From the sequence record PX104378.1: a stretch of 64,000 nt of DNA; one strand, written 5' to 3'. The position numbers and the translations under genes were made by a program. Positions 30,269 through 31,104 of this stretch are shown piece after piece. Origin of the DNA: a phage. The first letter of the stretch is position 1. Each line of letters begins with the position of its first letter. The notes below the pieces were generated by a model. The model was given only the letters and a program-made list of their open reading frames with translations, was not told where the DNA came from and made no database searches.

Positions 30269-30607
30269 TTATTCTCCTTTCTTAAACAAATTGCGAAGCC
30301 AGTATACAAACGGGATTTCTTTAAACTTGAACTTGTCAATAGTTAATTCTTTAGTAGCAAGATGAATACCATAAGCATCATGTGTCACGATATGCCATTT
30401 TCTATAGTCCAAATGTGAACAACCGTCTGAATCTAGGTTAATAATAGTTTCTCGCTCACTAGGATTGTTTTTCCACAATTTTGTAATCGGATCGCACATA
30501 ATTCGACCTAGCGTACCATGAATAATCTCACAACGGTAAAGTTTTCCAGCAGTGAGATAGGCGCACCCGTCATAGTCAGTATAAACAAATACTTCTTTAA
30601 CACTCAT
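30269..30607 (-). CDS. hypothetical protein, paralog family C (two DGC.[HY]L repeats)
   Basis: YTDYDGCAYLTAGKLYRCEI and NLDSDGCSHLDYRKWHIVTH; start at ATG 30607 after PeSL leader. Confidence 0.45.
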   Translation of the reverse strand: MSVKEVFVYTDYDGCAYLTAGKLYRCEIIHGTLGRIMCDPITKLWKNNPSERETIINLDSDGCSHLDYRKWHIVTHDAYGIHLATKELTIDKFKFKEIPFVYWLRNLFKKGE

Positions 30608-30638
30608 TTTAATACTCCTTTGTTGTTTCGATGGGGGT

Positions 30639-30667
30639 ATATTACTACCCCCGATCATGTGTGTCAA
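30639..30667 (-). promoter_or_regulatory. PeSL-type early promoter (TTGACA-N17-TAATAT) with hairpin
   Basis: GGGGGTAGTAATATACCCCC hairpin over spacer/-10; leader CATCGAAACAACAAAGGAG. Confidence 0.6.
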
Positions 30668-30928
30668 CTACTTTTTCAAGAATTTTTTAATTGCGTTCCA
30701 AAGACCTTTATTCTCAGGTTGTTTTGGTTCTTCGATCAGCGTCCATGTTCGACCGTCTAAGTGTGCACAATTTTTAAGGCAAATAAAAATCTGGTGTCCC
30801 TTATCATCACGGATATAACCACTATTCGCAAATCTTTCATGTGGTGTATATTCATACAGTGTATTTGGTGTAATATACTTGCGGTTACTATAAGGTGTCA
30901 TCACATACATCATGGTACTAACTCCCAT
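30668..30928 (-). CDS. hypothetical protein, paralog family C
   Basis: ..ICLKNCAHLDGRTWTLIEEP shares repeat with neighbours. Confidence 0.45.
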   Translation of the reverse strand: MGVSTMMYVMTPYSNRKYITPNTLYEYTPHERFANSGYIRDDKGHQIFICLKNCAHLDGRTWTLIEEPKQPENKGLWNAIKKFLKK

Positions 30929-31104
30929 TTATCACCGCGAAGATGAGAACATCCACCATCAAGAAGTATCGTAATACGATAACCTATATCATCTTTGATG
31001 TAACCGATTGTCGGTGGATTTTCGTCGTCTCGTGCCGGGGTAAAATCATACATCTTTCCGGGCGTAATATCTTGTCCTTTATTGCTATTGGTATAAACTT
31101 GCAT
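30910..31104 (-). CDS. hypothetical protein, paralog family C
   Basis: ..ILLDGGCSHLRGDKWELVP shares repeat with neighbours. Confidence 0.45.
   Translation of the reverse strand: MQVYTNSNKGQDITPGKMYDFTPARDDENPPTIGYIKDDIGYRITILLDGGCSHLRGDKWELVP

Follow-up and report, generated by a model that had tools for sequence, protein, structure and literature searches.

The stretch of phage DNA analysed here (sequence record PX104378.1, 64,000 nucleotides; "the window" denotes this whole stretch) carries three adjacent small genes, which we call p64, p81 and p112, whose products share a short motif of the form DGC(S/A)(H/Y)L. The 2.1 kb around the three genes are 97% identical to Krischvirus genomes (RB49, phi1, JSE and about 55 others), and the source DNA is a Krischvirus (RB49-like, T4-type) genome. 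The RB49 counterparts, RB49p097, RB49p096 and RB49p095, are each labelled "hypothetical protein". An earlier note on this DNA had singled out the interval 30269-31104, whose ends coincide with the p112 stop codon and the p64 start codon. In order of transcription, the genes are:

30910-31104, minus strand: p64, 64 residues, orthologue of RB49p097, a minimal single-domain member of its family (PHROG 6261, E 4.7e-29, profile positions 4-72 of 73; family hidden Markov model (HMM), 78.9 bits).
30668-30913, minus strand: p81, 81 residues, orthologue of RB49p096, one domain plus a tail (PHROG 15978, E 3.6e-60, profile positions 1-81 of 81; PHROG 6261, E 6e-6).
30269-30607, minus strand: p112, 112 residues, orthologue of RB49p095 (PHROG 6261, E 3.4e-37 over residues 3-76, profile positions 1-73 of 73).

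For p81 we chose the ATG at 30913 as the start codon; its homologues begin MMYVMT or MKYVMT. The domain of p112 comprises residues 1-75, holds both motif copies of this protein and is followed by a C-terminal tail of about 35 residues.

The earlier note had counted four copies of the motif in three adjacent open reading frames (ORFs). A scan of the six-frame translation of the window with the pattern [DGN]-C-[SA]-[HY]-L confirmed this, returning exactly four matches, all on the minus strand and all within p64, p81 and p112 (30410-30954). From the window's own amino-acid composition, 0.41 matches would be expected in the six frames and 0.003 in the 836-nt region, for which the Poisson probability of at least four matches is ~2e-12. 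The four copies are:

30940-30954, minus strand: G-C-S-H-L in p64, C-terminal position, aligned with family HMM columns 50-54.
30758-30772, minus strand: N-C-A-H-L in p81, C-terminal position, placed by the pattern scan and pairwise alignment.
30410-30424, minus strand: G-C-S-H-L in p112, C-terminal position.
30554-30568, minus strand: G-C-A-Y-L in p112, N-terminal position.

The likeness of the three proteins extends well beyond the motif. p64 is 40% identical to p81 over 63 residues (E 4e-13) and 35% identical to p112 over 72 residues (E 6e-5). By these alignments and the profile matches, p64, p81 and p112 are three tandem paralogs of one domain of ~60 residues (PHROG 6261/15978), of which the motif is the most conserved stretch. 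Protein comparison and the family HMM found no further paralog elsewhere in the 64-kb window. The two E-values, together with the Poisson probability of the motif cluster, provide the statistical support that the earlier note had left open for the repeat similarity. Its wording "duplicated in tandem" holds for the event and not for the unit: the tandem duplication is real, and what was duplicated is a whole gene or domain of ~60 residues rather than a module of 6-17 residues.

Identity to the listed Krischvirus orthologues ranges from 87.5 to 100%. The ratio of nonsynonymous to synonymous substitution rates (dN/dS) is 0.29-0.45 for p64 and 0.12 for p81, compared with 0.02-0.07 for the neighbouring genes regB and the nucleotidyltransferase (NTase) gene. 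Judged by these ratios, the genes are real and under relaxed constraint. Given that the ORFs are small and have no annotation other than "hypothetical protein", it might be argued that they are not genes or that the motif recurs by chance. This is refuted by the probability of the motif cluster, the homology of the paralogs over their full length, the hundreds of homologues, the dN/dS values below 0.5, and the Shine-Dalgarno sequences and translational coupling described below, and we give it next to no credence.

Alignment resolves the four copies into three plus one. Three of them share a homologous C-terminal position, just before the last strand of the domain, in the three paralogs. The fourth, in the N-terminal loop of p112 (YDGCAYLTAGK), is not positionally homologous to these and aligns with non-motif residues of p64 and p81. 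It belongs to an N-terminal element that is family-typical in p112 and degenerate in the other two, and at this place the consensus of the wider family reads TDY-x-GC-x-Y-[IL]-T-A-G-K. The two p112 segments that contain the copies and the strands before them, SVKEVFVYTDYDGCAYL and SERETIINLDSDGCSHL, resemble each other significantly, with an ungapped BLOSUM62 score of 41 (shuffles, 21.4 +/- 3.6; 0/1000 as high). At the level of the family profile the same register scored best but was not significant (p = 0.11), and an ancient internal duplication is not supported. A recent internal duplication within p112 was rejected because the DNA of the two segments is just 48% identical. From the sequence comparison, we read the likeness of the two segments as pseudo-symmetry of two hairpin units.

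We then looked at the family as a whole. A profile built from nine homologues was used for an exhaustive search of 1.84 billion representative proteins, and at E <= 1e-3 this recovered 334 clusters (50% identity). Most members are single-domain proteins of 58-70 residues; some are arrays of two to three domains or fusions in which the domain is the N-terminal module ahead of varied C-terminal domains. The consensus is MKVKTDY-x-GC-x-Y-I-T-A-G-K-x-Y-E-V ... G-x-I-x-D-D-x-G-x-x-I-x-I ... C-A-H-L-D-G-x-x-W-E-V-V-E. Matches among isolates come from Krischvirus, Vibrio myoviruses and T1-like coliphages; members are found among small early genes in Vibrio myoviruses, T1-like coliphages, a Mesorhizobium-associated phage contig and metagenomic phages, and every member whose genomic context was inspected sits in a phage or prophage. 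When the N-terminal pattern was searched at the DNA level in viral contigs, 30 of 38 matches also matched the family HMM, about ten of these being weak and falling in large proteins without C-x-H-L; among the at least 120 matches listed from cellular genomes there were no family members. A degenerate DNA pattern for C-A-H-L-[DN]-G-x-x-W-E had no match in viral contigs. Large phage proteins (295-431 residues) on the IMG/VR contigs L011, L014, L017, L020, L031, L038 and L040 contain the N-terminal type of element (YLTAGKYYEI ... DDxGD) but no C-x-H-L. They score 21-24 bits with the family HMM, a hint that the family may be part of a wider superfamily in which related barrels form repeats.

Pfam, NCBIfam and the PDB have no relative of the domain. 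Scans of the three window proteins and of up to 147 family members against Pfam, NCBIfam and PADLOC returned no meaningful family: the marginal Pfam matches among the 147 members were DUF6501 in six (best E 0.0017) and Tudor_5 in one (E 9.5e-4), the sole Pfam match of the window proteins at E <= 1 was a sub-threshold cyclophilin match of p81, and a PDB sequence-profile search of the family gave nothing below E 0.05. A relationship to the VOC/glyoxalase/FosA proteins was rejected (NCBIfam FosA models, 12.9-15.8 bits against cut-offs of 180-305; no helix in the domain core; Foldseek matches to glyoxalase I covering only 29 columns). The window proteins do not differ from PHROG 6261/15978 and RB49p095-p097; they belong to this already catalogued, uncharacterised family. 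The fusion partners recorded were a DUF3850/ASCH-like domain (PHROG 986, "RNA-binding protein"), a sub-threshold Tad2-like match and a "WGEMTDAEKGALLLA" domain. Eight proteins (P0052, P0068, P0106, P0113, P0127, P0141, P0143 and P0157) share a C-terminal fused domain with the motif TWGEMTDAEKGALLLAHHEG...YRIKPEP; three members scanned against Pfam had no match, and three scanned against PHROGs gave only marginal ones.

The earlier note had taken the conserved Cys-His pair as a sign of a small metal-binding or redox module. Spelled out, this would mean that the Cys and the His, perhaps with the N-terminal Cys or a second subunit, bind zinc or iron or form a redox-active thiol. We computed column conservation over 173 domain instances. 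Conserved HMM columns include Tyr20 (100%), Trp59 (99%), Lys18 (93%), Cys51 (92%), Thr15 (91%), Asp38 (87%) and His53 (82%); of the polar positions, the Cys and the His are among those best conserved. The N-terminal Cys of column 11, which p112 has in its loop, is common to 34% of the family, and the conserved D37 and D38 could in principle give further ligands; if the SH3 analogy developed below holds, the two motif elements could also adjoin. The pattern of replacements points the other way. Cys51 is replaced in 13 of the 173 domains, 12 times by Ser and once by Asp. His53 is replaced in 31, by Phe in 12, Tyr in 10, Trp in three (25/31 aromatic) and Leu in two. Such changes occur even in close orthologues of the window genes (SCAYL in P0005 and P0008, GCVFI in P0017, GCVYL in P0018), and one of the four copies in the window itself has Tyr. 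The p64 allele of a Hadza-gut phage contig (L045) reads DGCFHL, the change falling at the position between Cys and His. The description of a conserved Cys-His pair is therefore accurate only in part.

No third or fourth conserved Cys/His column exists in the 173 domains: apart from columns 51, 53 and 11, none has more than 15% Cys or His. Cys11 does not co-vary with Cys51 or His53 (Cys51 is present in 85% of domains with Cys11 and in 96% of those without it), 51/173 domains contain a single Cys and 2/173 contain none. The family columns hold no conserved CxxC and no CxxH pairing, and Pfam, NCBIfam and PDB searches gave no match to a zinc-finger, thioredoxin or other metal or redox family. Zinc ribbons, treble clefs and CxxC proteins are likewise small and have conserved Cys and His, but a structural zinc site has three or four fixed, substitution-intolerant ligands, whereas here there are two candidate ligands, both replaceable by non-ligands (His by F/Y/W/L, Cys by S). 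A thioredoxin-like CxxC/CxxS protein was rejected in the same way, as there is no conserved CxxC, the models are all-beta rather than alpha/beta, and Pfam has no match. With one Cys and one His there are too few conserved ligands, and a canonical metal site or a CxxC redox site is not supported by the sequences, which stay compatible with a metal site between subunits or in a minority of members. Overall, we regard a metal-binding or redox role as quite unlikely.

Structure prediction, which the earlier note had proposed, gave a small all-beta domain in the AlphaFold2 models of both p64 and p112. The p64 model has a predicted local distance difference test score (pLDDT) of 81. The p112 model, built with a 98-sequence alignment, has a pLDDT of 77-94 over the domain except in a block at residues 41-50, where it falls to 59; at the C-terminal motif it is 94. 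It consists of a strand at 5-9, a loop at 10-23 that contains the N-terminal motif copy, strands at 24-30, 33-37 and 53-57, a beta-bridge at C63, a one-turn helix at S64-L66 and a strand at 72-74. The domain is predicted to be a five-stranded small beta-barrel of SH3-like topology. The N-terminal element (Y-[IL]-T-x-G-K-x-Y, in some members after G-C) is predicted to form the long loop past strand 1, an analogue of the RT-loop, and the C-terminal element (C-x-H-L ... W) the bridge and the one-turn helix that lead into the last strand. When both models were compared with the PDB by Foldseek, SH3 domains led, Tudor, KOW and Pif1-SH3 domains came lower and the rest of the lists was mixed; in BFVD, dozens of uncharacterised phage proteins matched at a template modelling (TM) score of 0.6-0.75.

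As modelled, the domain resembles SH3-like barrels (SH3, Tudor, KOW, Pif1 SH3-like) in its length of about 60 residues and its five predicted strands. Strand 1 leads into a long loop, a tight acidic hairpin (DDxG) joins strands 3 and 4, a one-turn helix precedes the last strand, and conserved aromatics occupy the loop and helix elements. Unlike SH3 domains proper, it has no ALYDY, WW or PxxY signature, and neither Pfam nor the PDB profile search tied it by sequence or profile to curated families of SH3, Tudor or KOW domains; the likeness is one of topology only and implies no proline-rich ligand.

We next considered the genes around the three paralogs. All are on the minus strand, and the order of transcription is GrcA-like gene, NTase, p64, p81, p112, regB, an SLT-like vs.1 homologue, a Vs homologue and a macro-domain gene. 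Three of these neighbours are:

31911-32327, minus strand: GrcA-like gene (vs.6 homologue), 138 residues.
31126-31824, minus strand: RlaP-type nucleotidyltransferase, nrdC.11-like, directly 5' of p64 (Pfam RlaP, E 2.3e-15; PHROG 388; RB49 annotation).
29845-30267, minus strand: regB, endoribonuclease, directly 3' of p112 (Pfam REGB_T4, E 1.9e-48; RB49 annotation).

The three genes had been placed immediately downstream of RegB. This is wrong in functional terms: because all of these genes are on the minus strand and regB comes last in the series NTase, p64, p81, p112, regB, the three lie upstream (5') of regB in transcription. Three GenBank records (MK327932, MK962753 and MT478991) label p112 itself as RegB; p112 has no Pfam match at E <= 1, PF10715 included, and we flag these labels as errors. 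In MK327932 the label "putative endoribonuclease (RegB)" stands both on p112 and on the vs.1/SLT-like gene (L001 4475-4810 and 3370-3960). The vs.1 orthologues in L045 and on a second metagenomic contig (L049) have a weak SLT match only.

Some further features of this neighbourhood may be recorded. The GrcA/YfiD-like protein, an autonomous glycyl-radical cofactor, has a C-terminal RVSGYAVRF motif, with a Gly_radical match in L045. Past the 3' end of its gene and ahead of the NTase gene come a hairpin resembling a terminator (31901-31877) and a weaker site resembling a promoter (31883-31855). The Vs (valyl-tRNA synthetase modifier) homologue, T4 Vs and the SLT-like vs.1 homologue have signal-peptide-like hydrophobic N-termini (MKKLTIIAMIAMMFSVGALA; MTKILVLCIGLISFSASASA; MLKVLKAIVLSLSLAVGATHA; Vs and vs.1 homologues at 28802-29161 and 29169-29759, both minus strand, in the window; L047 21387-21734), which for Vs is unexpected in a protein said to modify a cytoplasmic synthetase.

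Small barrels such as Sm, KOW and Tudor-like domains bind RNA, and the setting of the three genes invites the idea that they encode RNA-directed accessory proteins, whose barrel would bind RNA and act with RegB and the RlaP-type NTase here and with RtcB, RNA ligase, Pnk or ASCH proteins elsewhere. p64, p81 and p112 sit between the RlaP and RegB genes, and p112 is coupled to regB with a 1-nt gap. Other family members adjoin RtcB and ASCH genes, adjoin an RNA ligase gene or lie about 2.6 kb from a polynucleotide kinase gene, and there is the one fusion to the DUF3850/ASCH-like domain of PHROG 986. A survey of 110 neighbouring ORFs at 36 loci, however, found no recurrent partner gene: DNA polymerase A occurred four times, ASCH twice, and RtcB, RNA ligase, Acb2/Tad1 and Lar once each, so the association with RNA repair is anecdotal. 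T4 has regB yet no family member in the syntenic region. Moreover, the domain has a median net charge of -5 and a pI of 4.76, being acidic in 78% of members, and direct nucleic-acid binding is therefore disfavoured; on composition, the acidity is consistent with protein binding instead. We consider an RNA-directed role unlikely.

The expression signals of the locus are compact. The intergenic region upstream of p112 contains an exact sigma-70-type promoter match, TTGACA-17-TAATAT (30667-30639), overlapped by a G/C-tract hairpin with a predicted folding energy of -17.3 kcal/mol (z -2.2), which in MK327932 is labelled a terminator. Exact matches to TTGACA-N17-TAWWAT number five in the window, all on the minus strand, against 0.14 expected. 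The features are:

30608-30667, minus strand: intergenic element upstream of p112, with the -35 box TTGACA at 30667-30662 and the -10 box TAATAT at 30644-30639.
30652-30646 and 30639-30633, minus strand: arms of the hairpin GGGGGTA/TACCCCC, which overlaps the -10 box.
15440-15468, 15563-15591, 18665-18693 and 33821-33849, minus strand: the other four promoter matches.

This arrangement, an intergenic early-promoter consensus with an overlapping G/C-tract stem-loop upstream of an ORFan, is that of the PeSL (early promoter plus stem-loop) elements of the hyperplastic regions of RB49 and phi1 (Arbiol et al, 2010; PMC2839356), and we predict a PeSL-type element at 30608-30667. The locus resembles the PeSL and ORFan cassettes described there in its small ORFans, its hyperplastic region, the promoter and stem-loop directly upstream of p112, and signs of cassette-like replacement and recombination. 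It differs in that p64 and p81 lie in one transcription unit, are translationally coupled and do not each have a PeSL of their own.

A GGAG Shine-Dalgarno sequence precedes all four genes (p64, 31117-31114; p81, 30925-30922; p112, 30618-30615; regB, 30277-30274). That of p81 lies within p64, and the p81 ATG overlaps the p64 TGA (ATGA overlap). The GGAG of regB lies within the last codons of p112, the TAA of p112 (30271-30269) being separated from the regB ATG (30267) by 1 nt. GGAG is also the cleavage motif of RegB, so the transcripts of p64, p81, p112 and regB could all, from these sequences, be RegB targets.

Comparison with related phages suggests that the locus turns over rapidly in content. 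L045, which is Krischvirus-like, has the same gene order and at least 90% identity over most of the region, with 73-83% in parts of p64 and p81. Its positions 4036-4246 are only about 37% identical in DNA to the p112 core of the window (30335-30566), with flanks at 90% or more. The encoded allele, of 103 residues, still belongs to the family and retains the final 21 residues, and by this comparison the p112 core in L045 is replaced by a divergent allele. The breakpoints lie inside the p112 coding sequence, and not at flanking PeSLs as in the cassettes described above. In L049 (45-296) a single 83-residue protein, P0005, lies directly upstream of p112 and regB and joins a p64-type N-terminal half to a p81-type C-terminal half. 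From its sequence it looks as if two tandem paralogs had collapsed into one through an exchange at the GYIKDD segment that they share, which would imply recombination between tandem paralogs; the chimera comes from a single 3-kb metagenomic contig and could be an assembly artefact.

In T4, the slot between vs.6/grcA and regB (L047; T4 62800-63557) is occupied by vs.3, vs.4 and vs.5, whereas Krischviruses have the RlaP-type nucleotidyltransferase and the three barrel genes there. The T4 genes are alike in genomic position, gene number and small early ORF size range (58-92 residues), but have no detectable homology to the p64/p81/p112 family, and the family HMM found no homologue over T4 40-75 kb (best E > 0.5). 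Judged from gene content, the slot between vs.6 and regB is a clear example of a hyperplastic slot.

The tails of p81 and p112 raise another possibility, namely that these two proteins are membrane-tethered effectors whose tails lie on the inner membrane, p64 being a soluble variant. They might serve, for example, to exclude superinfecting phages, to time lysis or to evade envelope-linked defences. Both tails are basic and amphipathic (p81, GLWNAIKKFLKK, pI 10.3; p112, IPFVYWLRNLFKKGE, pI 9.5), and similar tails occur in P0023, P0032, P0070 and P0083. The model of p112 has two helices in the tail, one of them predicted at residues 99-110, and the p112 tail is intact across the allelic replacement in L045. 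The helices are of low confidence, however (pLDDT 49-64), most family members have no tail, and no transmembrane segment or signal peptide was found. The retained part of the tail overlaps the ribosome-binding site of regB, which could itself explain the conservation of the DNA. We rate the chances of this alternative as low.

The account that we favour, with a probability of roughly 0.5, is that p64, p81 and p112 are triplicated, early-expressed, SH3-like binding modules of an uncharacterised phage family, probably aimed at a host protein. SH3 domains bind ligands on a face formed by the loop that follows strand 1 together with the turn that precedes the last strand. By analogy, the two motif elements would meet on one face of the barrel, where the invariant Tyr and Trp and the His/aromatic position (Y13, Y20, H53 and W59) would make up a ligand-binding surface, and the Cys would be a small packing residue. 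The motif would then mark a conserved surface or core of the domain, and neither catalysis nor a metal would be needed. Expressed early and mostly acidic, the proteins would dock onto a target in the host (or the phage) during takeover or counter-defence. Within their hyperplastic gene slot they may have diversified by duplication, paralog recombination and allelic replacement. In p81 and p112, the basic amphipathic tails may help to direct the proteins to the membrane or to a partner.

Several points weigh against this binding-module account. The SH3 resemblance is weak, consisting of Foldseek matches at E 0.3-1, a probability of at most 0.51 and a TM score of about 0.4, plus the order of secondary-structure elements. 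The nearness of the two motif elements in space follows from the SH3 analogy and is not a measurement. The neighbours of family members elsewhere are heterogeneous, so genomic context gives no positive support for a specific target. In the literature we found nothing on p64, p81, p112, their RB49 counterparts or their PHROG families, and no reports of a partner, phenotype or expression. Finally, a Cys that is 92% conserved is unusual for a purely structural surface residue, and it could take part in chemistry not recognised here.

There is also a bolder proposal, which we regard as unlikely: the CxH...W small barrel would be an undescribed, widespread phage effector domain, and the near-invariant Cys with the His/aromatic position a genuine functional site. 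At such a site, contact with a host immunity or housekeeping protein could be bridged by a metal or depend on a thiol.

For the biology of the family, the analysis revises the view of the Cys-His motif as the mark of a metal site. The hyperplastic regions of T4-type phages are full of small early ORFans and have repeatedly yielded host-takeover and anti-defence proteins. As a widespread domain of ~60 residues that has no Pfam entry and a defined conserved surface, the family is a reasonable, not an outstanding, candidate for functional screening; the duplication, paralog recombination and allelic replacement at the locus, and the presence of unrelated genes in the T4 slot, add to the case. If the bolder proposal were true, the triplication, the exchange of the p112 allele and the p64/p81 chimera would be traces of a continuing arms race, and the genes would constitute a new anti-defence or host-takeover family in T4-type phages.

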